A stretch of 64,000 nucleotides of DNA from an uncultured Candidatus Saccharibacteria bacterium (GCA_964460325.1 CAYWPI010000001.1:11105-75104), one strand, 5' to 3'; shown: positions 380 to 63,987, counted from the first letter of the stretch. Made by a program: numbers and translations. The notes: generated by a model from the letters alone, not told the origin.

Positions 380-3301
380 TTAAATAATAAAATTAATAAG
401 TCGATTCGATACAAAAATAACTTTCTTGGGAGTGGCACTGAGCCATTTTTTTGTTTCTTCGCGTCCTGTCGCTAATTTCTCCGCATCGGCTTGTGAGATG
501 CCCATTGGTGCCGAAACTTTATCGCGCACTTTTCCATTCACCTGAATAATAAGCTCAAAAGCATCTTCAACAATTAATTTTGCGTCATAAGCTGGCCACT
601 CGCTGACGTGGATACTTGGAGAAGCTTTTAGCTTTAAGCTGTTAGCTGTTAGCTTCTGCCAGAGCTCCTCGGTAAGGTGCGGGGCAAATGGTGCGAGAAT
701 CTGCAGAAATGCTTTCCAGATATCGCTTGGCATTGATTCTTTACTCGCCGCTTCGTTTACAAACACCATCATCGAACTGATTGCGGTGTTAAACGACATT
801 GATTCGATATCCTCTGAGACCTTCTTGATCGTCTTGTGCAGTGATTTTTCCAGGTCAGGGTTCTCCCCTTTTTTCACAACCTTTTCAATTCCGATACGAT
901 AGACGCGCTCCAAGAAACGAGTGCAGCCTAAAATGCCGTGCGGGTCCCAACTGATCGCTTGATTAAACGGTCCCATAAACATCTCATACATGCGGAGTGC
1001 ATCAGCACCAAACTCCGCGATGATATCGTCCGGATTAATGACATTGCCGAGCGACTTACTCATCTTTGAACCGTCCGCGGCGAGCACCATGCCGTGGCTG
1101 GTTCGTTTCTGATACGGCTCGCTTGTTGGCACGAGGCCAAGGTCGCGCAGGAACATATTCCAAAAACGGGAATATAAAAGGTGAAGCACGGTGTGCTCCA
1201 TGCCGCCGTTGTACCAATCCACCGGCATAAAGTATTCGAGCGCCTTCTTGCTCGCAAACTCCTTTTTATTTTTCGGGTCGAGATAGCGCAAGAAGTACCA
1301 TGAAGACCCTGCCCAGTTTGGCATAGTGTCGGTCTCGCGCTTGGCCGGCTTCTTGCACTTCGGGCACTTCACATTCACAAAGCTCTCAATGGCTGAAAGC
1401 GGACTTTCGCCCGTGTCGGTCGGCTGATACTTTTCCACTTTTGGCAGCTTCACGGGCAAGTCTTTTTCTGGAACAGCTACCCAGCCGTCGGTTTCACACT
1501 TAATGAGCGGAATCGGCTCACCCCAATAGCGCTGACGAGAAAATACCCAGTCACGGAGTTTATATTTCACTGTTTTCTTACCGCCGGTAATTTTAATCGC
1601 CTCATCTATAGAGATGAGTGGCTTATTCACTATCGGTAATTTAAACTTTTCAGCGAAAGCTCGGTCACGCTCGTCGTGCTGCGGCACCGCCATAATCGCT
1701 CCCGTTCCATACGTCGAAAGAACATAGTCGGCCACCCATACCGGAATCTCTTGCTTGGTCGCCGGGTTAATCGCCTTGATGCCCTTCAGCTCCACGCCCG
1801 TCTTTCCTTGTCCTGAGCCCGCCGAAGGATCTTTTTCGAAAGCAAGGCGCTCCTCCTCGGGTTTGTTCTTTACGCTCGCGATATACTTTTGAACTTCTCC
1901 AAAGTTAGAGATGAGAGGTCGGAGGTCGGAGATTAGTTTATGCTCAGGAGCAAGCACCATATAGGTTGCTCCAAACAATGTGTCGGGACGGGTAGTAAAT
2001 ACCTTCAGAGAAGGCACTACTTCCTGTAATAGTTCCGGGAATGCGTTTGTACCACCCATGTCGGCTGGCATAAAATGCCCATAATTAGGAAATTGGATCA
2101 ATCTTCCTCCAAGTTCCGCTGCATAAAGCCTTGCGCTTTTTTGATGTCTTTCTTTGTCCTGCTCACCAATAAAAACAACCACTTCGTCGCAGTACTCTTT
2201 GATGTTTTTATCAATAATAAAATCAGACCATAGCCGCTTTTCGGGCGTTGCATCATCGGCAGGTATTTTCGCGGCAGCAACAAGAACCAGCTTCGCAATA
2301 TTTTTTTTACTTTCGCTCAGCCATCGAACTAAAAATGCACCGCCACAGCTGTGCCCGATAAGCACGGTTTGTGCATCGATATTTAGTTTTTCAATTTCAG
2401 CCTTCCATTCTTCATAGTTTGGGCGCCATGCATTCGGCATGACAGGGTTATAAACCTGAATACCTTCTGTAGTGAGTTTTCGGCGCATCCAAGAGATCCA
2501 GTGTTTATCACTATCAGTCTCAACGTTAATAAATGATTCTTTATTCGGTGGACAGCCATGGATCATTACACATTTCGTGATCTTTTTTGTGGCAATCTTA
2601 AAATCAATCTCCACACCTTCGCTCCGGCCAATCCAATTCGTCTGTTGGGTAACCGCTTGGGGAATATAATCTAAACCCTCCAAACCCTTGAGGAGCTTAT
2701 CAGCATACTTCGTGATGGCAATCATCCACTGCTCCTTCTCGCGCTTTTCAACCGGGCCACCGCAGCGATCGCACACGCCGCCGGCCGCCTCTTCGTTAGC
2801 CAGGCCAATCTTATCCTTGGGGCACCAGTTGATATATGTTTTTGCCTTATATGCCAATCCTTTCTCAAAAAACTTCAAAAACATCCACTGCGTCCACTTA
2901 TAATATTCTGGGTCAGTGGTATCGATTTCTCTCTCCCAATCAAAGCCAAAACCCATCGCTTTAAGCTGACGACGGAAGTTGTCAGTATTCTGCTTGGTCG
3001 CCACCGCAGGGTCGATACCCATCTTTATGGCATAGTTTTCGGTCGGCAACCCGAACGCATCCCAGCCGATGGGATATAAAACATTAAAGCCCTCCATACG
3101 GCGTTTGCGCGTGATGATGTCCATCGCAGTCTGCGAACGGACGTGCCCAACGTGCATACCGGCGCCAGACGGATATGGAAACTCAATTAGGCCGTAAAAC
3201 TTCGGCTTTTTACCCCCCGTCTTGGCTTGATAGAGCTTTTTCTTTTCCCAAACGGATTGCCAATGCTTCTCGAAAGTTTTTCTGGCCTCGTTATAATTCA
3301 T
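380..3301 (-). CDS. leuS: Leucyl-tRNA synthetase with an extra inserted alpha/beta-hydrolase (RBBP9/YdeN-like) domain ahead of the CP1 editing domain
   Basis: 973-aa ORF. HIGH motif (HVGH), KMSKS motif, CP1 editing motifs TTRPDTLFGAT and AVPQHDERD. Extra ~188-aa segment (residues ~238-425) carries GHSCGG and YGHF motifs. Confidence 0.9.
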   Translation of the reverse strand: MNYNEARKTFEKHWQSVWEKKKLYQAKTGGKKPKFYGLIEFPYPSGAGMHVGHVRSQTAMDIITRKRRMEGFNVLYPIGWDAFGLPTENYAIKMGIDPAVATKQNTDNFRRQLKAMGFGFDWEREIDTTDPEYYKWTQWMFLKFFEKGLAYKAKTYINWCPKDKIGLANEEAAGGVCDRCGGPVEKREKEQWMIAITKYADKLLKGLEGLDYIPQAVTQQTNWIGRSEGVEIDFKIATKKITKCVMIHGCPPNKESFINVETDSDKHWISWMRRKLTTEGIQVYNPVMPNAWRPNYEEWKAEIEKLNIDAQTVLIGHSCGGAFLVRWLSESKKNIAKLVLVAAAKIPADDATPEKRLWSDFIIDKNIKEYCDEVVVFIGEQDKERHQKSARLYAAELGGRLIQFPNYGHFMPADMGGTNAFPELLQEVVPSLKVFTTRPDTLFGATYMVLAPEHKLISDLRPLISNFGEVQKYIASVKNKPEEERLAFEKDPSAGSGQGKTGVELKGIKAINPATKQEIPVWVADYVLSTYGTGAIMAVPQHDERDRAFAEKFKLPIVNKPLISIDEAIKITGGKKTVKYKLRDWVFSRQRYWGEPIPLIKCETDGWVAVPEKDLPVKLPKVEKYQPTDTGESPLSAIESFVNVKCPKCKKPAKRETDTMPNWAGSSWYFLRYLDPKNKKEFASKKALEYFMPVDWYNGGMEHTVLHLLYSRFWNMFLRDLGLVPTSEPYQKRTSHGMVLAADGSKMSKSLGNVINPDDIIAEFGADALRMYEMFMGPFNQAISWDPHGILGCTRFLERVYRIGIEKVVKKGENPDLEKSLHKTIKKVSEDIESMSFNTAISSMMVFVNEAASKESMPSDIWKAFLQILAPFAPHLTEELWQKLTANSLKLKASPSIHVSEWPAYDAKLIVEDAFELIIQVNGKVRDKVSAPMGISQADAEKLATGREETKKWLSATPKKVIFVSNRLINFII

Positions 3302-22087: not shown

Positions 22088-22253
22088 GGTGCGCAAAACT
22101 GGAAGAAATTACACTGCCGACCTTTTCAGGGTCAGCGCCAACAAATAATGCACTCCAGTAATTTGTGCGCATTACCGAAATCGAACCAGCGGTTTTTTCA
22201 ATGTTAAAGAACTCACTCAATCAAACCTGGCGACTTTCGTCCACTGAGCCCTG
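22088..22253 (-). other. tRNA-derived fragments or a disrupted tRNA, including a Phe-GAA-like anticodon arm, a D-loop-like GGCTCAGTGG and a T-loop-like GGTTCGATT
   Basis: Manual inspection only. No complete cloverleaf could be folded. The GCGCACA acceptor-like motif occurs three times. Confidence 0.3.
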
Positions 22254-26287: not shown

Positions 26288-27595
26288 CTAGGTCCCATGT
26301 ATGGAGGCGTGGTCGTCTCCGTTGTTTCCCTTCTCTCTGCTGCACGAGAGTACGCGAGCGAGCAAGTCAGGCTTGAGCGGAGGCAGCGACGGCTCTTCCT
26401 CTTCCGGCGGCAGCCGCAGGTGGTACAGGTGAACGCTCAGCTCCCCCTGCAAACCAGCTTCCCGCAGCTTATTCGGATCAGTCGTGAAGGCGCCCACCTC
26501 AGTGTCCCGCCAGGGCAAAATTCCTACCTTGACATCGTCTCGAGCATGAGCTCGGAGAGTTGCGCTATCAAGACGGCTTCGAAGGTTGTGAACGCGCCGC
26601 CTGAGACGGCGCGGGAACGCTCCCATGAGGAACTGGACCACCAAGTACTCGATCGTCCGAAAGGACAGTCGACGTAGCCAGCCGCCAAGCCCCTCAACGC
26701 TACGCCACACGTAACGCCGTAGTCGTTGCTTTCGCAACGCCTTCTTGGAAGTCGAACCTCTCGGGCAGGTGTAGAGTAAGAAGAGCTCCACAATCCAAGA
26801 CGCCACCCTCCCGAGGTAACGGCTGGACGACCTAACCGGCAGCTTAGTCGTCACAATCCTGTTGGGAATAACCAGGATGTGAGTAGGCCGGAAAAGTCGG
26901 ATCACTCGCTCCACCGGGAAGAGATTTCCGAGGGCGCCATCGAAATACTTGCGCCCGTTGATCGTCACATACTTGCCGTACAGCGATCCCGGCAGTGCGG
27001 CACTAGCGATAATCGCAGCGATCGGATCTGGACACTCTTTCACATTCAGCACTACGGACTTGCCCTCCGGCGTGGTCACCTGGACATAGAACTCGCTCGT
27101 GGCGGCCAGGAGCGCCGCTTGGTCAAGCGGGGGGATGCCCAGGGTGGGGTCACCAAACCGGATGAGGCGCTCAAGCCAGTCGATATCGGCCGCCCCCTTA
27201 CGAAAAGGGCGGACGAACTTTTCTCTCTTAAGCCAGCAGCGAATTCGATGCCACAGATCCGCAAAGGAGCTGATGAAATCGTTACGCACACCCCGAAAGG
27301 GACTAATGAATCGACGCGTGGCAAGCGCATCCCAGTAGGAACGTAGCGCCACCTCCGACTGTCCGGCGAGAAAGTACGCCGCGGTGATGGCCCCGGTCGA
27401 GATTCCGAACACCACATCAAACGCCCGGTGTAAACCCATCCTGACCAGAGCTCTCGCCTGACCGGCGCCGAAGACACCGCGCATACCACCAGCAAGCACC
27501 ATGAGAACGCTCTTGAAGTAGCTAATGGTAGCAAGCCTATCACGACGGAGCAGGTCATAGATGACCTCATCCGTCTTGCTAGCCTTGTAAAGCAT
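26288..27595 (-). CDS. Patatin-like phospholipase, high-GC cassette e
   Basis: Oxyanion motif GGMRG (GGxRG), nucleophile elbow GISTGA (GxSxG) and catalytic DGA. ~60% GC. Start chosen at MLYKASK. Confidence 0.75.
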   Translation of the reverse strand: MLYKASKTDEVIYDLLRRDRLATISYFKSVLMVLAGGMRGVFGAGQARALVRMGLHRAFDVVFGISTGAITAAYFLAGQSEVALRSYWDALATRRFISPFRGVRNDFISSFADLWHRIRCWLKREKFVRPFRKGAADIDWLERLIRFGDPTLGIPPLDQAALLAATSEFYVQVTTPEGKSVVLNVKECPDPIAAIIASAALPGSLYGKYVTINGRKYFDGALGNLFPVERVIRLFRPTHILVIPNRIVTTKLPVRSSSRYLGRVASWIVELFLLYTCPRGSTSKKALRKQRLRRYVWRSVEGLGGWLRRLSFRTIEYLVVQFLMGAFPRRLRRRVHNLRSRLDSATLRAHARDDVKVGILPWRDTEVGAFTTDPNKLREAGLQGELSVHLYHLRLPPEEEEPSLPPLKPDLLARVLSCSREKGNNGDDHASIHGT

Positions 27596-27873
27596 AAGGC
27601 CCCCAAAACGGAAAAGGAATTTCGTCGAGCCTGGCAACGAGCCAGCTCGAACTATCCTTACCCTGCAACAAGGCCTAGGGATAGTCAAGACGCCAGGCTA
27701 AGCTAGGCCGGGCATGTATCACTTCCTATCGTTGGTGCGTGTGGATCAAAGTCAACAGACATTGATGGGTGGCGGTCAACTAACCATAATCCAGGCGCCA
27801 CCCGGGGACGGAATGAAATTCCTTCCACGCAATATGAATTAAAGTTTGACCCTTTACGGGCCAAACTTTACTG

Positions 27874-27945
27874 TGCGTGTGGAAGGAATCGAACCTTCGA
27901 CCTTTTCATTATCAGTGAAATGCTCTACCACTGAGCTACACACGC
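27874..27945 (-). tRNA. tRNA-Ile(GAT)
   Basis: Manual fold: GCGTGTG acceptor, loop CTGATAA, T-arm GAAGGTTCGATTCCTTC. Confidence 0.8.
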
Positions 27946-28057
27946 AATATTTACTGTAGAGCATTGAAATGCTCTTCCGGGGTGAGTTACCGAATTATAG
28001 TTTTTTGAACCTCACCCGTCGAGACCTGCTGGCCTCGACCCACTGAGCTACACACGC
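27946..28057 (-). repeat. Upstream tRNA module 1: duplicated tRNA-Ile 5' fragment (18 nt) plus three hairpins (GTCGAG...CTCGAC; GGGTGAG...CTCACCC; CGGAAGAGC...GCTCTAC)
   Basis: Direct comparison with 63694-63803, which has the same architecture and conserved GTCGAGGCCA, ATAATTC and CGGAAGAGC motifs. Confidence 0.6.
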
Positions 28058-28094
28058 AGAATGCTATTTATTTAAGACGAAAATTGTTTCTTGG

Positions 28095-28448
28095 TCAACT
28101 GCTAGTTGCCGCGGTTGAAGTGGGCACAGAAGAAGTTGCAGTCGTACTGCTTGCCGGATTGGCTGATCCTGCCGGCAACACGGGAGCGGTTGTCGTCGCA
28201 GGCACGCTCGGAACTGTTGAAGAACCGCTGGTTGTCGCTGGCCGCAAACCGAGCGCCTCAAAAGCTTTGAAATCAAAGTGCCCAGAGGTATCGTTGGTAC
28301 TCGCTGGTCTTCCAAAAACTCGATATACCTTTTCAGTAAGTCCATTCACTAACGAAACCACATAAATTGAAACACCAACAACAATAATGCTAATGAGCAC
28401 GATCGCGATCATTTCTTTTTTCCGATCAGCAAATTTATGAAGTTTCAT
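28095..28448 (-). CDS. Ser/Thr-rich membrane-anchored small protein
   Basis: N-terminal transmembrane segment and a low-complexity S/T/A/P-rich tail. Confidence 0.4.
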   Translation of the reverse strand: MKLHKFADRKKEMIAIVLISIIVVGVSIYVVSLVNGLTEKVYRVFGRPASTNDTSGHFDFKAFEALGLRPATTSGSSTVPSVPATTTAPVLPAGSANPASSTTATSSVPTSTAATSS

Positions 28449-50544: not shown

Positions 50545-53500
50545 TTAGTACCCTGCTGACTTAATAATACTCTCCGCTGTCTCATTCGCCGGGCACCTGA
50601 AGCTTTTTGAACCACCACATTTAGTACAATCAACCACTACAACCGGGAGCTGTGTGCAAGTAGCGCCAGCGGTCGCTGGATTATATGTTGCACGTCCTCG
50701 TTCATCAAGAGCATCTGCCAGACCGGGAGTGTATGGGATACCGCGCGAACGCAAAGTCGAGGCAAAATTTTTACATATTGTACATGTTCCCGGCTTCGCT
50801 GGTATATTACCAAACTCACCACCCCTCCCATATATTGTTATCGCACACTTACAACCAGCTCCAACGACCGGTGATGATTGCACAGGAGGCTGCTCTAAGC
50901 AACCACACTTCCCATCTGGCATTACTCCACAACGCCCACCCGCAGAAGTACACTTTTTCTGAGTACAGATTGAATTCTTTGCATTCCTATACTCCGGGGT
51001 CTTTATCGCCTCAGAAATCGGGACACCACCCCACGTCATGTTGCCCGCTCGATCCAGAACGATACCCATTTCATCCGCCTTAACTTCACAGCCTATAGGA
51101 TATTTTAACGACGTTGAAGGCGGTTGCAGTGGCGACTTCGGCTCCCGATAAGGAGTTGTCGGACTTTTAGTTTGCGGAGTTGTAGCTGGACTTCCTCCCG
51201 TCGAACCACCATCTGGCGTGACCGGAGGTTGTGTTGCTGGCGGCGGCGGACTACCACAGGCACATCCATCGCCACTCACAGTTGACTGACAAATACCAGC
51301 GGTACAATTAAGACCCTTCTTTGAACAGGCTGCGCTCGGCGAAACTCCGCCACAATCACCCCATGTTTCTTCAATGGAAATTAAGAAATTAATTTGCGTC
51401 TGAGTTAATCCGGCATCCTCTCCGTTCTCAGTTATTTGCTCTGGAGATGGACAGTTCCCTTTATCGTGGGGGACAAGTTTATCAATAAACTCTTGAGCCC
51501 GCTGAACATTCTCAGGTGAGTATCTAAGACAAGTGTTTACTTTCTCGCCAATCACACCCGGATCAATAACACCAGGGAAGTCAAACGGTTCATCTAAACC
51601 AAGCGGAGGCAAATCAGTTGGCTCACTAGGCTCTGGGGATACAAATGGCGGGTATTCTTCTCCATCCGAAATTTCTGGATCGGCAGGATTGACCGCAGGA
51701 ATATCAGGGAATTCAGAAGAATCAGGCGGTGTTAATGGCGCGCACATACATCCACCGCCGGCACTATTACTGCAAGACCCACCGGATTTGGCACAACTCC
51801 CAGAACATTCTCCCGTCGAACCCTTGCCAGTAACCCAATTCAATAATCTTTCCCAGAAGGTTGTATCATGACACGTATCTCCCGGCTCAAGCACAGGTGC
51901 AGCTGTCGGCGCATCGACTACAGGGGGTTGAGAGTCGTCATTTGAATCTGGCGAGGCGGTCGGGGCAGTAGGGGCTGAAGCTGGCGCAGCTGATCCGTTA
52001 CAGCTGCATGTAATAACATATTTCCCGTTTTGCAAAGTTGGTGATGACGGCGCACACTTCCCAGCAGAACAAGCCTTTGTATCTGTTGAACAAACAGCAC
52101 CTAATGCACCAGAGGCTATATTATCTGCAACAGCCTCTTTTTCCTTTTCCAAACGCTGAGTTTCACTGTTTAAATTCGTAACAAGGCTTGGCACCTGATT
52201 CCTTGCAACCTCAAGCCCACGATTATAATCACCGTTGCCGAGTTGAGTTATTTGTTGATTAATACTAGTAATTGATGCCGTAATTTGATTGAGAAGGTTT
52301 AATTGCTCATCAAGTTTTGCATTACCAACCCGAGTACAAGAACCCGCTTTGTCAGTTCCAACAACAGGCGGAACGGTAGGCACAACAGGAATCGGGGCAG
52401 GTTCGGTCGGTGTTACTGGTACAACAGGAGCAACTGGTTGCTCGCCAGTTGATTGCGGTACTGCTCCTGCTGGCACATTGCCATCACTAGCTCTATCAGG
52501 CGTAGAACCACCACAGCATTCAATTGAATACTGCAAATAACCACTTGCGGTCGTCCGCTTTACCAATACAGCTGGCCCACACTGACCACCTCCAGAGCAT
52601 TGTGCCGCTGGATCGCCGCCGCACATAAAATCTTTCGCGCTCGCCAACGCCTTCACGAGATTGTCATAAGTTGGTTTTATTCTCTGCGCAGCAAACCGCG
52701 CCTGCTCATCAGCTGACATCGACTGGCTTTTTTCACCTAAATACTGATAAAGCGCATTGAGCTCTAATAATGGATCAGTTACTGAAGGTGTAATTGTTTT
52801 TTGACACACTCTGGGCGCAGTTATATTCAAATCAGCACCTTCGGGATTCTGCGGAAGCCCGTCATTATTCCCGAAAATAGTCCCAAACACCTTCGCGCGA
52901 AATGCCGCTGCAAACTTTGATGGAAGGCTTAATATGCTGTCAGATGCTGATGCCGGAGCATCAGCCCCGCTACCACTACCCGCACCAGTCGATCCACCAG
53001 TGCCGGGAGTTGAACCACCTCCGCTAGTACCACCAGACCCAGCCGAACCTCCGTCTTTTACGGAATTCGTAATCCCGCACGCCATAGTCCAGTTGTAATT
53101 CACCTCAACCGCCGCCTCAACATTAACAGTAATCTTAACTGAATCACCCGAACCGCTCTGCTTAGCCTGTGTAACATACGCACCTTCATCACTCGAATCA
53201 TCCCCAGTATAAGTGCAGGCACCAATACTATATGTTAACTCCGTACCACACGGCTTACAGTTAGTCTCCTTCCCGTCATTGGGACACGAAACATCACAGG
53301 CGATAATCTTATTTTTTGCAGCACTCTCTGCATTAGCATTTGCACTCTCACAAGCCGACTTCTGCGCCGCTTCAAGCATTTCTCGAAACTCCCCTTGTAC
53401 GCGATTAATAAATTGCACACCATTTTCATATTGAGTCGTTTTGTTTGCACACTCAGTTCTGCAACTGATAATTGGGTAGGTAGACTGAGGACCGGCAACA

Positions 53501-55023
53501 TTTTCACATACAGTATACGCATCTTCACAAGCACCTGTTCCATGAGTAAGCGTCTGCGAAGCGCTGCCTGACCCCGTTACTGATTCAGCATTGCTTCCAG
53601 TCTTTGTTGTCGCAGGGCATGATGGCCCTTGAGTTGGCTCTGGCACTGGCGAACCAGTCACCTCCTGACATCCACAGGTCGGCACGGTAACTGCCTCATA
53701 TCCTCCCGTATCACCGCCAACCCACCGCCGATCTGATTGAGTTCCCGCAACACAGGTTCCCGCCGCACCACTAGAGGTGGTGCACTCGCCGCCACACTCA
53801 GAACGCTGAGCACACTCATCTCCACCACCAGTTGCCGTTGTGCCACTCGGAAGTTCACTGTCGGGCTTGCCACCAAACACATCATCGAAAAAGGAGGTAA
53901 TGTTTCGTAAAACATTCACGATGCCGTTGGTCACCACGCTAAGAGCGGTTGTGCGAGCATCAGGAACCGTAAAAACACCAACCTGGGTCTCAAGGTCAAC
54001 ACGACCCAACACATTATTGGCTGTCTTCACTGCAATTTCATCAATCAAATCACCCGCTTTTGTAACATGCAGCTCGGTAATGGTTCCTGTTTGAGTTTCG
54101 GCAAAAACTTGTTCCCCAGAAATAGTGGCAAAAACTTGTTCCCCAGAAATAATACGCGGAGCCACTTGGAAAGGAACACAATCAGAGCCGCATGCTTGCT
54201 GATCAGCATAAGCTTCTGCGGTTGTGGGCAATAAGATAACCTGCAACCTTTGTCCACTTACGGGATCCACGGTTTGCGTGTCTGCCGTTACCACATTCGT
54301 TGTTTGAGCGGGCACCCAAATCTGCAAAGCTGATTTCACTTGTGGAACAGAGGCGGCGGGAGCAGTTGTTACGCGTTGACCGGTTCCTGCATCTGCCGTT
54401 GGCTGCCTATCAATCACCGGTTCAGTTGTTACCCCGCTGGGAAGTTGCGGATCAGAAACAATGGGCGGCAGAGGATCTATAAGCGCTTGAATATTAGGAA
54501 CTTCCACAATTTTCGTCGCTCCGCCGGACACCGCCGAACCGCTCATCCACGCATCGATAAGACTTTTTGCATTTGCCCCCGGATCATATGGCTGGGTAAC
54601 AATACCCGCACCAGATCCCTTCGAATTACTAGGTGGTGTCACTGTTGAACCAGAGCCACCGGCTTGAGTTGCTCCTCCATCGTTACCTGTTACGTTTTGC
54701 GAACCAGAGCCTGATGGCTGAGTATAGCTTGGAAGGTCAGGCGTGAAATGAGGAAGAATCGGCTCTACTTCGAAATAAATACCACCCGGCTCTTGATCAT
54801 TTTTTCGTTCTTCATAAAAACTAGTTCCACTGGTATCCGCCATGTTGCCTCCCGCTCCGCCTTGATACACTTGAGCCAGCTGACTTGAGCCAACGATATC
54901 GGCCGGAATCACTGGGAGCATTCCCGTGACCAAAGCGAGTGCCGCAACCGGAAGCACAAGTCGAACAATATGTCGCATCATTGATATGTAAATAAAGTGT
55001 AAAGATAAAGAAGAGCTCCTCAA
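50545..55023 (-). CDS. Giant secreted Cys-, Gly- and Thr-rich surface protein (1492 aa)
   Basis: Signal peptide or N-terminal transmembrane segment. Numerous Cys-rich segments. Internal 27-nt perfect tandem duplication at ~54098-54151 (ISGEQVFA x2). Confidence 0.65.
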   Translation of the reverse strand: MRSSSLSLHFIYISMMRHIVRLVLPVAALALVTGMLPVIPADIVGSSQLAQVYQGGAGGNMADTSGTSFYEERKNDQEPGGIYFEVEPILPHFTPDLPSYTQPSGSGSQNVTGNDGGATQAGGSGSTVTPPSNSKGSGAGIVTQPYDPGANAKSLIDAWMSGSAVSGGATKIVEVPNIQALIDPLPPIVSDPQLPSGVTTEPVIDRQPTADAGTGQRVTTAPAASVPQVKSALQIWVPAQTTNVVTADTQTVDPVSGQRLQVILLPTTAEAYADQQACGSDCVPFQVAPRIISGEQVFATISGEQVFAETQTGTITELHVTKAGDLIDEIAVKTANNVLGRVDLETQVGVFTVPDARTTALSVVTNGIVNVLRNITSFFDDVFGGKPDSELPSGTTATGGGDECAQRSECGGECTTSSGAAGTCVAGTQSDRRWVGGDTGGYEAVTVPTCGCQEVTGSPVPEPTQGPSCPATTKTGSNAESVTGSGSASQTLTHGTGACEDAYTVCENVAGPQSTYPIISCRTECANKTTQYENGVQFINRVQGEFREMLEAAQKSACESANANAESAAKNKIIACDVSCPNDGKETNCKPCGTELTYSIGACTYTGDDSSDEGAYVTQAKQSGSGDSVKITVNVEAAVEVNYNWTMACGITNSVKDGGSAGSGGTSGGGSTPGTGGSTGAGSGSGADAPASASDSILSLPSKFAAAFRAKVFGTIFGNNDGLPQNPEGADLNITAPRVCQKTITPSVTDPLLELNALYQYLGEKSQSMSADEQARFAAQRIKPTYDNLVKALASAKDFMCGGDPAAQCSGGGQCGPAVLVKRTTASGYLQYSIECCGGSTPDRASDGNVPAGAVPQSTGEQPVAPVVPVTPTEPAPIPVVPTVPPVVGTDKAGSCTRVGNAKLDEQLNLLNQITASITSINQQITQLGNGDYNRGLEVARNQVPSLVTNLNSETQRLEKEKEAVADNIASGALGAVCSTDTKACSAGKCAPSSPTLQNGKYVITCSCNGSAAPASAPTAPTASPDSNDDSQPPVVDAPTAAPVLEPGDTCHDTTFWERLLNWVTGKGSTGECSGSCAKSGGSCSNSAGGGCMCAPLTPPDSSEFPDIPAVNPADPEISDGEEYPPFVSPEPSEPTDLPPLGLDEPFDFPGVIDPGVIGEKVNTCLRYSPENVQRAQEFIDKLVPHDKGNCPSPEQITENGEDAGLTQTQINFLISIEETWGDCGGVSPSAACSKKGLNCTAGICQSTVSGDGCACGSPPPPATQPPVTPDGGSTGGSPATTPQTKSPTTPYREPKSPLQPPSTSLKYPIGCEVKADEMGIVLDRAGNMTWGGVPISEAIKTPEYRNAKNSICTQKKCTSAGGRCGVMPDGKCGCLEQPPVQSSPVVGAGCKCAITIYGRGGEFGNIPAKPGTCTICKNFASTLRSRGIPYTPGLADALDERGRATYNPATAGATCTQLPVVVVDCTKCGGSKSFRCPANETAESIIKSAGY

Positions 55024-55714: not shown

Positions 55715-55786
55715 GCCCTCGTAGCTCAATGGATAGAGCTACTCCGTCCTAAGGAGAAGATAACTGTTCGATTCAGTTCGAGGGCA
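55715..55786 (+). tRNA. tRNA-Arg(CCT)
   Basis: Manual fold: GCCCTCG acceptor, loop GTCCTAA, T-arm AACTGTTCGATTCAGTT. Confidence 0.75.
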
Positions 55787-55914
55787 CCCATAGCTCAAAG
55801 CTGATGCCTCCTGGGTCGGCTTTCTCACCTTGCGTTGAAGTAGATGAGAGCTGCCCCGCCCTAAGGCACACCTGACTGCTCAAATCAAGTCCAGAAACAC
55901 AGAAAGAATCGTCT

Positions 55915-63396: not shown

Positions 63397-63677
63397 GCCG
63401 ATGTAGCTCAGCTGGTAGAGCAACTCCATGGTGGCTCGCAAAGCCCGCCCATTACGTAAGTAATTACGTAATGAATCCCGAATAACGGTTAATATCCCAA
63501 CAAAGTCAGGGCAAGATCCTTCGGCTTCGCTCAGGACAAGACCGTAGCGTCAATTGACGCTCGAACGACTGACAAGGGCTCCGATGCTTGAGATGCGGAG
63601 AAGATACAGTCTAGCCCTTTATGTAAATAGAGGTGTAAGCGAAGGAGTAGGTCGCCGGTTCAATTCCGGCCATCGGC
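63397..63677 (+). tRNA. tRNA interrupted by a group I intron; tentatively tRNA-Thr(GGT) if the splice site is between positions 36 and 37
   Basis: 5' exon GCCGATGTAGCTCAGCTGGTAGAGCAACTCCATGGT. 3' exon AAGGAGTAGGTCGCCGGTTCAATTCCGGCCATCGGCT. The exons fold into a cloverleaf. Anticodon assignment is uncertain. Confidence 0.6.
63433..63640 (+). other. Group I intron (~208 nt, no ORF)
   Basis: P-like GACCGTAGCGTCAATTG, R-like CGAACGACTGACAAGG, S-like AAGATACAGTCTAG (P7 pairing GACTG/CAGTC). 5' exon ends in U and the intron ends in G. Confidence 0.55.
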
Positions 63678-63693
63678 TCACAATTAAATAGCA

Positions 63694-63803
63694 GCTACCA
63701 CCTTAGCTCAGTTGGGTCGAGGCCACCAGGCCGAGACGGGCGAACCGCCTGAGCGTCATAATTCAAAGTTCGCCCCGGAAGAGCTTGCTCTACCGACGAT
63801 ATT
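63694..63803 (+). repeat. Upstream tRNA module 2: duplicated 18-nt 5' fragment of tRNA-Thr(TGT) plus conserved hairpins
   Basis: CCACCTTAGCTCAGTTGG, then GTCGAGGCCACCAGGCCGAGAC, then GGGCGAAC...GTTCGCCC, then CGGAAGAGCTTGCTCTAC. Same organisation as 27946-28057. Confidence 0.6.
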
Positions 63804-63876
63804 GCCACCTTAGCTCAGTTGGTAGAGCAACACTTTTGTAAAGTGAAGGTCCCCGGTTCAAGTCCGGGAGGTGGCT
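63804..63876 (+). tRNA. tRNA-Thr(TGT)
   Basis: Manual fold: GCCACCT acceptor, loop TTTGTAA, T-arm CCCGGTTCAAGTCCGGG. Confidence 0.8.
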
Positions 63877-63965
63877 CAAATGATCTTGAACCGGAAACCC
63901 GGTTGCCGCTCAAGTGGCGGCATTGCGATTTCTAAGTGCTCAAAATCTCGCACAGAAATCGGGAA

Positions 63966-63987
63966 CAAGTCCGGGAGGTGGCTCAAA
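63966..63987 (+). repeat. 22-nt direct repeat of the tRNA-Thr(TGT) 3' end (CAAGTCCGGGAGGTGGCTCAAA)
   Basis: Identical to 63859-63880. Separated from the tRNA by ~85 nt of hairpin-rich sequence. Confidence 0.7.

Follow-up and report, generated by a model that had tools for sequence, protein, structure and literature searches.

The 64,000-nt stretch analysed here (the window; GCA_964460325.1 CAYWPI010000001.1:11105-75104), from an uncultured Candidatus Saccharibacteria bacterium, carries ordinary core genes, among them those for leucyl-tRNA synthetase (LeuRS), serine hydroxymethyltransferase (SHMT), TopA (topoisomerase I), DprA, and enolase, and ten dispersed tRNA genes called by ARAGORN and Rfam. 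The closest named relatives of its TopA are Patescibacteria (Parcubacteria), near Candidatus Harrisonbacteria. Upstream of both tRNA-Ile(GAT) and tRNA-Thr(TGT) lies a module made up of a tRNA 5' fragment followed by three hairpins. A reading well supported by the sequences is that each module is a decayed head-to-tail duplicate of the neighbouring tRNA gene, bearing a conserved two-hairpin insertion in its D-loop. This two-hairpin tRNA D-loop insertion is previously undescribed.

The insertion is 61–66 nt long and composed of two abutting hairpins, HP1 (hairpin 1; 9 bp, ANYA loop) and HP2 (hairpin 2; GGG...CCC stem of 7–8 bp, loop of 21–26 nt). Its site is constant, directly after G18G19 of the D-loop, between G19 and A21, with nucleotide 20 replaced. 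In both window modules, Ile and Thr, the disrupted copy stands upstream of the intact gene and has lost everything 3' of about positions 25–34. The stump retains the 5' 18–19 nt, the insert, a few bases of the D-arm and anticodon stem, and an antisense fold-back that forms a third hairpin (HP3).

At the minus-strand Ile locus, the first-pass annotation had noticed an exact copy of the first 18 nt of the tRNA, three hairpins, and then the full tRNA, and all of these are indeed present. GCGTGTGTAGCTCAGTGG at 28057..28040 (-) is identical to tRNA-Ile(GAT) positions 1–18, and a T at position -1 extends the repeat to 19 nt. HP2 is followed by C-GGAAGAGC, HP3 (AGAGCATT/AATGCTCT, the hairpin running CGGAAGAGC..GCTCTAC), twelve bases, and the intact tRNA. 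The fold-back, AATGCTCTAC, is the exact reverse complement of the native tRNA-Ile D-arm GTAGAGCATT. ACAGTAAATATTG corresponds to the tRNA-Ile 3' end plus trailer, ACAGTAAAGTTTG, at a spacing of 83 nt, which equals one tRNA plus about ten bases and is evidently the original tandem period. Three direct repeats, D1, D2, and D3, have spacings of 112, 49, and 83, and the inverted repeat I7 is the fold-back. The flanks of the insert thus decompose into tRNA-Ile positions -1 to 19 on one side and positions 18–34, fold-back, and 3' end plus trailer on the other, indicating that the module is a second copy of the cognate tRNA, without flanks of its own.

The same order of parts had been reported at tRNA-Thr(TGT), built on that tRNA's own 5' fragment, and we find it there with an exact 18-nt copy of positions 2–19. 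The Thr module contains CCCCGGAAGAGC at 63773–63784, and its fold-back, TTGCTCTACCGAC, is antisense of native tRNA-Thr positions 27 to 15 (12/13 match). In a pairwise alignment of the Ile and Thr modules, the blocks GGGTCGAGGCCA, CCCCGGAAGAGC, and TGCTCTAC are identical. The Ile region, module included, is the same in L070, an independent Logan assembly of run SRR15237813, indicating that the Ile module is not an assembly artefact; this comparison reaches about window 63671, where the Logan contig ends, and the Thr module lies beyond that point.

Related genomes, which the first-pass annotation had proposed to align at these tRNA loci, show the Ile module kept in one and missing from others. 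L071 (GCA_964595155.1; TopA 88% identical to the window's) has the same module at tRNA-Ile, and position 4 of the fragment tracks the genome's own tRNA, being T in the window and G in L071. In L078 and L079, tRNA-Ile is bare. L073 (GCA_034680565.1; TopA 70% identical) also has no module at tRNA-Ile and carries one upstream of tRNA-Val(GAC), the only Val upstream module found. The insert of this module is flanked by tRNA-Val positions 1–18 and 17–29, and the base after AGAGC is G, as in the tRNA-Val of L073, where the Ile module has A, as in tRNA-Ile. Both strands of its HP1 are changed (GTTTTGGCC/GGCCAAAAC). For the Thr module, no ortholog was retrieved: at that locus, L080 (ENA sample ERZ27247837) and its close relative L082 end or differ, and the tRNA-Thr(TGT) of L081 (GCA_030647685.1) is clean.

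The decisive, and clearest, evidence for insertion into the D-loop of a tRNA copy is the arrangement in L080. There, two complete tRNA-Arg(CCT) genes stand in succession without a spacer, overlapping by three bases; the first is intact, and HP1 and HP2 are situated in the D-loop of the second copy. When 64 nt are removed in silico, ARAGORN calls a 73-nt tRNA-Arg(CCT) whose acceptor and D stems have a single mismatch each. Since the sequence after the insert is cognate tRNA in the modules too, and since the L080 insert lies in a complete tRNA without an 18-nt repeat, the 18 nt are best read as the 5' end of a mostly deleted second copy. Cognate tRNA stands in register on both sides of the disruption at Ile, at Val in L073, and at Arg in L080, as in a tandem tRNA pseudogene.

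The insertion-bearing Arg copy is absent from L082 and from L081, whose tRNA-Arg(CCT) is clean. Its 3' part is identical to the resident tRNA-Arg of the window (53/53), compared with 42/51 for its own intact neighbour, indicating either that L080 gained a foreign allele with the insertion already in it or that the neighbouring gene underwent replacement. The intact tRNA-Arg of L082 is the intact allele of L080 (73/73), and L082 has no second copy. Between tRNA-Trp and tRNA-Arg, L080 (3724–4691) has about 0.9 kb more than L082 (2610–2805), comprising a NADAR-domain gene and a 75-aa open reading frame (ORF) in addition to the insertion-bearing copy. The tRNA-Trp of L080 is inverted relative to L082, and the window and L081 have a 5-kb block of glycolysis genes there.

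In total, there are six clear copies (Ile in the window, its ortholog in L071, Thr, Val in L073, Arg in L080, and an inverted Ile-derived copy, unit C) and two degenerate remnants, the tRNA-Val and tRNA-Arg pseudo-copies, both in the window. Unit C and the tRNA-Arg remnant had escaped the first reading. Located just past the tRNA-Ile terminator on the opposite strand, with copies of the tRNA-Ile 3' end on its flanks, unit C comprises a strand resembling the tRNA-Ile acceptor, HP1' (ATCAAAGTC AACA GACATTGAT), HP2' (GGGTGGCG..CATAATCC..CGCCACCC), a degenerate T-arm, and CCACGCA. What had been taken for a possible third upstream module, at 22088–22253, is instead downstream of tRNA-Val and is a decayed tandem tRNA-Val copy with an HP1-like remnant only. 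Its 3' part matches the L073 allele at 38/47 positions and the resident allele at 32/47. The tRNA-Arg pseudo-copy was considered as a foreign allele as well and rejected as too decayed, with 18/20 vs 17/20 against the two alleles. The clear copies share their junctions, ..TGG|G(T/A).. on the left and ..CCC(C/G)GG(A/GC)|AGAGC on the right, and an intact tRNA with the same anticodon accompanies each insertion-bearing copy. In this sample, all pseudo-copies that retain the D-arm carry the insertion or a remnant of it, and those without are short 3' fragments of the classical attachment-site (att) type.

Table 1 Features of the insertion-bearing tRNA loci in the window.
Feature	Coordinates	Strand	Description
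Promoter-like site, likely the original tRNA-Ile promoter	28070..28098	-	TTGACC (28098..28093), 17-nt spacer, TTAAAT (28075..28070); consensus match only
5' end of disrupted upstream tRNA copy (unit A)	28040..28058	-	19 nt identical to tRNA-Ile from position -1 to 18 (T+GCGTGTGTAGCTCAGTGG)
HP1, first half of D-loop insertion	28018..28039	-	9-bp hairpin with ANYA tetraloop, GTCGAGGCC-AGCA-GGTCTCGAC; in minimum free energy (MFE) folds
HP2, second half of D-loop insertion	27980..28017	-	Stem GGGTGAG/CTCACCC; 24-nt A/U-rich loop with TATAATTC; GGGTGAG..ATAATTC..CTCACCC
Sigma-70-like site within insertion	27994..28022	-	TCGACG, 17 nt, TATAAT; 10/12 consensus matches; consensus match only
Rest of unit A D-arm and anticodon stem	27962..27978	-	GGAAGAGCATTTCAATG, tRNA-Ile positions 18-34, 15/17 match, T20 to A
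Fold-back	27956..27965	-	AATGCTCTAC, antisense of native tRNA-Ile positions 28 to 19; pairs with AGAGCATT to form HP3
tRNA-Ile 3' end and trailer copy, then linker to intact gene	27946..27957	-	ACAGTAAATATT; contains ACAGTAAA
Intact tRNA-Ile(GAT)	27873..27945	-	ARAGORN and Rfam, 81.5 bits
13-bp terminator-like hairpin	27840..27870		Common to tRNA-Ile (-) and unit C (+)
Unit C, inverted diverged Ile-derived copy	27729..27835	+	Covariance-model match at 27729-27812, 28.8 bits, E 3e-6
5' fragment of tRNA-Thr(TGT)	63697..63715	+	Positions 2-19 exact (63698-63715); position 1 A instead of G
D-loop insertion at Thr	63716..63776	+	HP1 63716-63737 (tandem G.A/A.G), HP2 63738-63775 (loop with CATAATTC), and C; 85.2 bits
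D-loop/D-stem remnant, fold-back, linker	63777..63803	+	GGAAGAGC, then TTGCTCTACCGAC, then GATATT
Intact tRNA-Thr(TGT)	63804..63877	+	ARAGORN and Rfam
Degenerate tandem tRNA-Val pseudo-copy	22165..22252	-	Abuts 3' end of intact tRNA-Val; HP1-like remnant ACGAAAGTCGCCAGGTTTGAT in D-loop, HP2 gone
Degenerate tRNA-Arg(CCT) pseudo-copy	55786..55870	+	Abuts intact tRNA-Arg with GCA overlap; about 49 nt with TGGGTCGG interrupts D-loop; truncated past anticodon loop

The two hairpins are conserved as structures. A covariance model built from four copies recovered two copies outside the model, the one in L080 (47 bits, E 1.5e-12) and unit C, indicating that the resemblance exceeds chance. Run with filters off over the window and the relatives, the model matched at tRNA loci and found no copies outside them. 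In a model-fitted alignment of six copies, 94.9% of stem cells are paired and 13/20 pairs have double changes; none of 500 shuffles matches the observed score, and slid controls pair at 42% or less. Double changes occur in 7/9 pairs of HP1 and 4/7 pairs of HP2, with all cells of HP2 paired. A MAFFT alignment of four copies, which is independent of the model, gives 97.5% of cells paired, with double changes in six pairs. HP1 and HP2 are present in the MFE folds of all copies. This covariation refutes the possibility, held open at first reading, of simple tandem tRNA pseudogene remnants without conserved structure. The cores of non-orthologous insertions are 45–68% identical, indicating that the family is old and that the helices, not the sequence, have been kept.

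At tRNA-Ile, conservation extends beyond the helices. Window 27872–28111, which spans the tRNA, the module, and about 55 nt upstream including the promoter, is 90% identical to L071, compared with 68–78% for the flanking coding DNA; the sequence before 27872, just downstream of the tRNA, did not align. The four differences in the HP2 stem make up two compensatory pairs, the HP2 loop is identical at 23/24 positions, and the HP3 loop is reversed in orientation between the two orthologs (TTCA vs TGAA). The TTGACC and TTAAAT hexamers of the upstream promoter are the same in L071, with a partly different spacer. The excess of identity over the flanking genes suggests that the Ile module is retained for function, probably as a transcribed structured leader or a promoter.

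The module is, we infer, co-transcribed with its tRNA. In the predicted fold of leader plus tRNA, the fragment is able to take the place of the acceptor stem's true 5' strand, and GCUCUAC is able to pair with the true D-arm; these alternative pairings are a possible switch. The module may also add a promoter, as the insert of the Ile module contains a sigma-70-like site with its -35 element in the 3' strand of HP1 and its -10 element in the HP2 loop. At the homologous position, unit C has TTGATG-17-CATAAT (9/12 matches; consensus match only). The suggestion of a structured leader at first reading is right in that the module is structured and likely acts as a leader now, but it is a decayed tandem tRNA copy and not a free-standing leader motif.

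Rfam 15 gives no match to the module either at the gathering threshold, which only tRNAs pass in the window, or at E up to 10, consistent with the statement of the first-pass annotation that this is not a known structure. Viral scans and BLAST searches of phages and plasmids returned nothing relevant. Resemblances to known riboswitches, ribozymes, tmRNA, and the signal recognition particle (SRP) RNA were considered, and none is backed by Rfam. A T-box-like specifier, with ATAATTC read as Ile codons, was rejected because ATAATTC is also present in the Thr copy, and an element of the IS200/IS605 or repetitive extragenic palindromic (REP) type was rejected because HP1 begins at the junction itself, leaving no room for a guide segment.

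Upstream of the Thr module, tRNA-Thr(GGT) at window 63397–63680 (+) is split after anticodon position 36 by a 209-nt group I intron (63433–63641) and ends 17 nt before the module. The intron is missed by ARAGORN and by the Rfam gathering threshold (Intron_gpI, E 0.027); after splicing in silico, ARAGORN calls tRNA-Thr(ggt), and L082 has an intron-less ortholog. Group I tRNA introns of this sort are a known kind of feature in Patescibacteria (PMC13011429). Downstream, a perfect 22-nt direct repeat of the tRNA-Thr(TGT) 3' end (CAAGTCCGGGAGGTGGCTCAAA) lies at window 63966–63987 (+), 88 nt past the gene. This classical att-type arrangement suggests a past or present integrated element that would reach past the end of the window. 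In L082 (69–84, +) and the homologous region of L080, tRNA-Thr(GGT) is followed by a lone 16-nt tRNA 5' fragment (GCCTTTTTAGCTCAGG) broken in the D-loop and then by unrelated sequence with a small reading frame, read by eye only as L33-like (rpmG); neither genome has tRNA-Thr(TGT) at this position.

At the Val locus of the window, the pseudo-copy is followed by a second, more decayed tRNA-Val 3' fragment (..GACCCTGAAAAGGTCGG..TTTTGCGCACC) at 22088–22164 (-), the two making a small array of tRNA-Val remnants. In L073 (2925–3075, -), the two arms of a perfect 15-nt inverted repeat, CCATACGCCAATGCA ... TGCATTGGCGTATGG, stand on either side of tRNA-Val(GAC) and are followed by TTTT, giving the intact gene the look of sitting in the loop of a terminator hairpin. 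A perfect 38-nt copy of its 3' half comes next. Beside tRNA-Ile, a gene for a patatin-like phospholipase (window 26288–27688, -) is situated between the tRNA and SHMT in the window genome only, and L071, L073, and L079 carry other small genes there, indicating that the site is a variable hot spot.

The whole is best explained, in our cautiously held opinion, by a stump of a tRNA copy with a D-loop insertion that spreads among tRNA genes and has been retained as a leader. According to this explanation, the insertion would be a small non-autonomous sequence spreading among tRNA genes at one specific D-loop site, and at least once it would have passed between lineages along with a tRNA allele. 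It would inactivate the tRNA copy that it occupies and would therefore be found only where an intact copy of that isoacceptor adjoins it. In the lineage of the window, the stump would have been retained under selection and transcribed as the intact tRNA's 5' leader. The old promoter upstream of the fragment, and possibly also the sigma-70-like site formed by the insert, would initiate transcription, which would read through the three hairpins, after which RNase P would release the tRNA. The 18-nt fragment would pair with the 3' acceptor strand of the tRNA and may modulate maturation. The junctions of the insert are uniform and the other junctions variable, with antisense segments templated on native D-arms that still have T20. 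Variable junctions, D-arm-templated antisense, and the flipped HP3 loop together suggest that the process included template switching during replication, or else recombination, at the palindromic D-arm.

Several points weigh against this explanation. The sample behind the insertion family is small, four related Parcubacteria genomes with about 170 kb. In a genome collection without the window's own genome, the pattern GTCGAGGCCAN{35,65}CCCGGAAGAGC had 69 matches and no further copies among them; as the matches lie in unrelated, mostly GC-rich genomes and have neither hairpins nor an adjoining tRNA, we attribute them to chance. A refined exact pattern had a single chance match in a metagenome collection, in an unrelated stretch without a tRNA in the locus. 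These broad scans used exact patterns only, and the family is accordingly either confined, as it appears, to a narrow clade of Parcubacteria or diverged past the patterns. The identities of 45–68% indicate that the copies are not recent products of transposition. No enzyme able to move the insert was identified, and no transposase was found among 20 window ORFs scanned. The six-copy alignment was fitted to the covariance model, and this fitting favours the structure. Only the Ile copies and unit C match the internal promoter well; for the Thr, L073 Val, and L080 Arg copies the match is weak or missing. The 90% identity to L071 could in part reflect recombination between lineages, not selection. 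Finally, template switching, as seen in the antisense fold-backs and the spacer-less junctions, could make such loci without dedicated mobility.

The leading idea at first reading was a mini-transposon whose cuts in the tRNA gene, at positions 0 and 18/19, leave an 18-nt target-site duplication. Perfect direct repeats of 18–19 nt do surround about 93 nt at Ile, Thr, and Val in L073, the position in the D-loop is constant, and presence varies among relatives. The part of the idea that stands is a small, conserved, structured element at a fixed D-loop position in several tRNAs. The 18 nt are not a target-site duplication, however, as the right side of the insert is also cognate tRNA (positions 18–34, 3' end, and trailer), and the L080 insert, within a complete tRNA and without an 18-nt repeat, contradicts the idea directly. 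In addition, the insert ends (GTCGAGG.., ..CACCCC) form no consistent terminal inverted repeats in the alignments inspected, no copies lie off tRNA loci in the 64 kb and the relatives, and the 20 window ORFs scanned include no transposase. We consider this explanation very unlikely. An attachment-site scar, left by an element with a tyrosine or serine recombinase that crossed over in the D-loop and was then mostly deleted, with the hairpins as an attP arm and the rest a miniature, cis-mobilisable remnant, has more in its favour, though we still judge it improbable. Partial plus complete tRNA copies are a known signature of integration (PMC9897764). The D-arm inverted repeat would suit a recombinase core, the tRNA loci are variable hot spots with classical 3'-fragment repeats (window 63966–63987; Val in L073), L082 and L080 have a solitary 5' piece of a tRNA whose break lies in the D-loop, and among the insertion-bearing copies one is xenologous. 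Yet the duplicated part is the 5' end, the copies are 0–15 nt apart with neither element body nor integrase between them, and near-identical internal deletions would be required at three or more loci. Nor does a dead scar lead one to expect covariation or 90% orthologous conservation, and the insert of L080 is a simple one, with tRNA continuous on both sides.

Another explanation is a genuine D-loop intron, removed by the host or by the RNA itself, in which case insertion-bearing tRNAs would be functional and the stumps would be the hosts of dead introns. The insert does sit in a loop, the L080 copy retains a near-perfect cloverleaf, and the phylum is rich in tRNA introns (PMC13011429), one of which lies 17 nt upstream of the Thr module. 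However, 61–66 nt is far below the size of introns of either group I or group II, and Rfam, which does pick up the neighbouring group I intron (E 0.027), gives the insert no match at E up to 10. The predicted folds contain no bulge-helix-bulge motif, an intact partner with the same anticodon goes with each insertion-bearing copy, mismatches affect the D stem and the acceptor stem of the L080 copy, and splicing would leave unexplained why truncated stumps still keep the hairpins. We give the intron little credence. The loci might instead be neutral debris, produced by tandem duplications and template-switch errors at the palindromic D-arm, with filler copied by gene conversion and with neither function nor mobility. 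Antisense fold-backs templated on native D-arms, the flipped HP3 loop, microhomology at junctions such as the GCA overlap, and the clear decay of several copies all agree with such an origin, but pairing has been kept through 13 double changes despite drift to 45–68% identity, and the orthologous module is more conserved than coding DNA. Moreover, junk is not expected to last long in small Parcubacteria genomes. On balance, we think neutral debris an improbable account of the whole.

If a retained stump with a spreading D-loop insertion is the correct explanation, the loci point to a hitherto unnoticed route by which tRNA genes turn over in ultra-small genomes. Genes for tRNAs are among the most conserved and most often targeted loci of prokaryotes, and known targeting involves the 3' half and large, integrase-bearing elements. 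Here, in contrast, a very small structured sequence appears repeatedly in the D-loop of spare tRNA copies and survives only beside an intact copy. It seems able to arrive with a foreign tRNA allele and, at tRNA-Ile at least, is kept better than protein-coding DNA. The leader would also be a natural one that holds an exact decoy of its own tRNA's 5' strand, providing a ready system for the study of tRNA maturation control. In practical terms, such loci break assemblies and confuse tRNA annotation in genomes of the candidate phyla radiation (CPR). More speculatively, and as a proposal that we regard as doubtful on present evidence, the two-hairpin block could represent an unrecognised class of tRNA-specific element in Parcubacteria, which would use one D-loop site, travel horizontally with tRNA alleles, and force tRNA turnover by duplication or by replacement with a foreign allele. 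It would perhaps be structure- or RNA-guided, or a tiny host-processed intervening sequence, and its remnants would be recruited as leaders that mimic the tRNA 5' end.

Two further genes in the window were also noted. LeuRS (973 aa; window 380–3301, -) has an inserted serine-hydrolase/alpha-beta-hydrolase domain (Pfam Ser_hydrolase, residues 264–411) between its catalytic and editing parts. A 1492-aa ORF at 50545–55023 (-) has no Pfam match, and at the corresponding position L081 has an ORF of similar size, likewise with no Pfam hit recorded.

Among known systems, the loci invite comparison with the partial tRNA copies at the att repeats of integrated elements, which are 3' parts at opposite ends of kilobase-sized, integrase-bearing elements (PMC9897764). 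Both are variable among relatives, and one partial copy here is of a foreign allele type. Here, however, the 5' part (positions -1 to 19) or a whole copy is duplicated, 93–104 nt lie between the repeats (0 nt in downstream-type copies), and no recombinase domain was found in the neighbouring ORFs scanned. The copies are 0–15 nt apart, and the sole extra DNA is the conserved 61–66-nt two-hairpin D-loop block. MITEs (miniature inverted-repeat transposable elements), REP and bacterial interspersed mosaic elements (BIMEs), and palindromes derived from IS200/IS605 are likewise short and non-coding, with hairpins kept by compensatory changes and a patchy distribution over several loci. Unlike those, the present copies have no terminal inverted repeats that we could find, occupy one position in tRNA genes and are not dispersed, and are very low in number. 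The 18–19-nt repeat occurs in upstream-type copies only and is absent from the L080 Arg copy. GG is all that flanks every insert, leaving a possible GG as the sole target duplication of fixed length, and no space is left for the guide sequence that lies 5' of the hairpin foot in IS200/IS605 ends.

In a recent survey of Patescibacteria, the tRNA introns described are of group I and sit in anticodon loops; the survey also reports a single group II intron in a bacterial tRNA D-loop, from another phylum, and nothing like the two-hairpin insertion (PMC13011429). With tRNA introns, including archaeal non-canonical D-loop introns and the bacterial D-loop group II intron, the insertion shares its place as an intervening sequence in a tRNA loop and an intron-rich phylum. 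It differs in that no ribozyme core or bulge-helix-bulge is seen, that an intact gene copy is always alongside, and that most inserts are in truncated copies never able to yield a tRNA.

Functional RNAs are also derived from the leaders, spacers, and trailers of tRNA precursors, an example being the 3'ETS-leuZ sponge of Escherichia coli. Like these, the module is a structured non-tRNA segment that is putatively co-transcribed with the tRNA, from which RNase P or another processing step would release it. Unlike these, it comes from a disrupted tRNA copy and includes an exact mimic of the tRNA 5' 18 nt. Of all the systems compared, the present case fits the defining features of only two, the tandem tRNA pseudogene and the conserved structured element.

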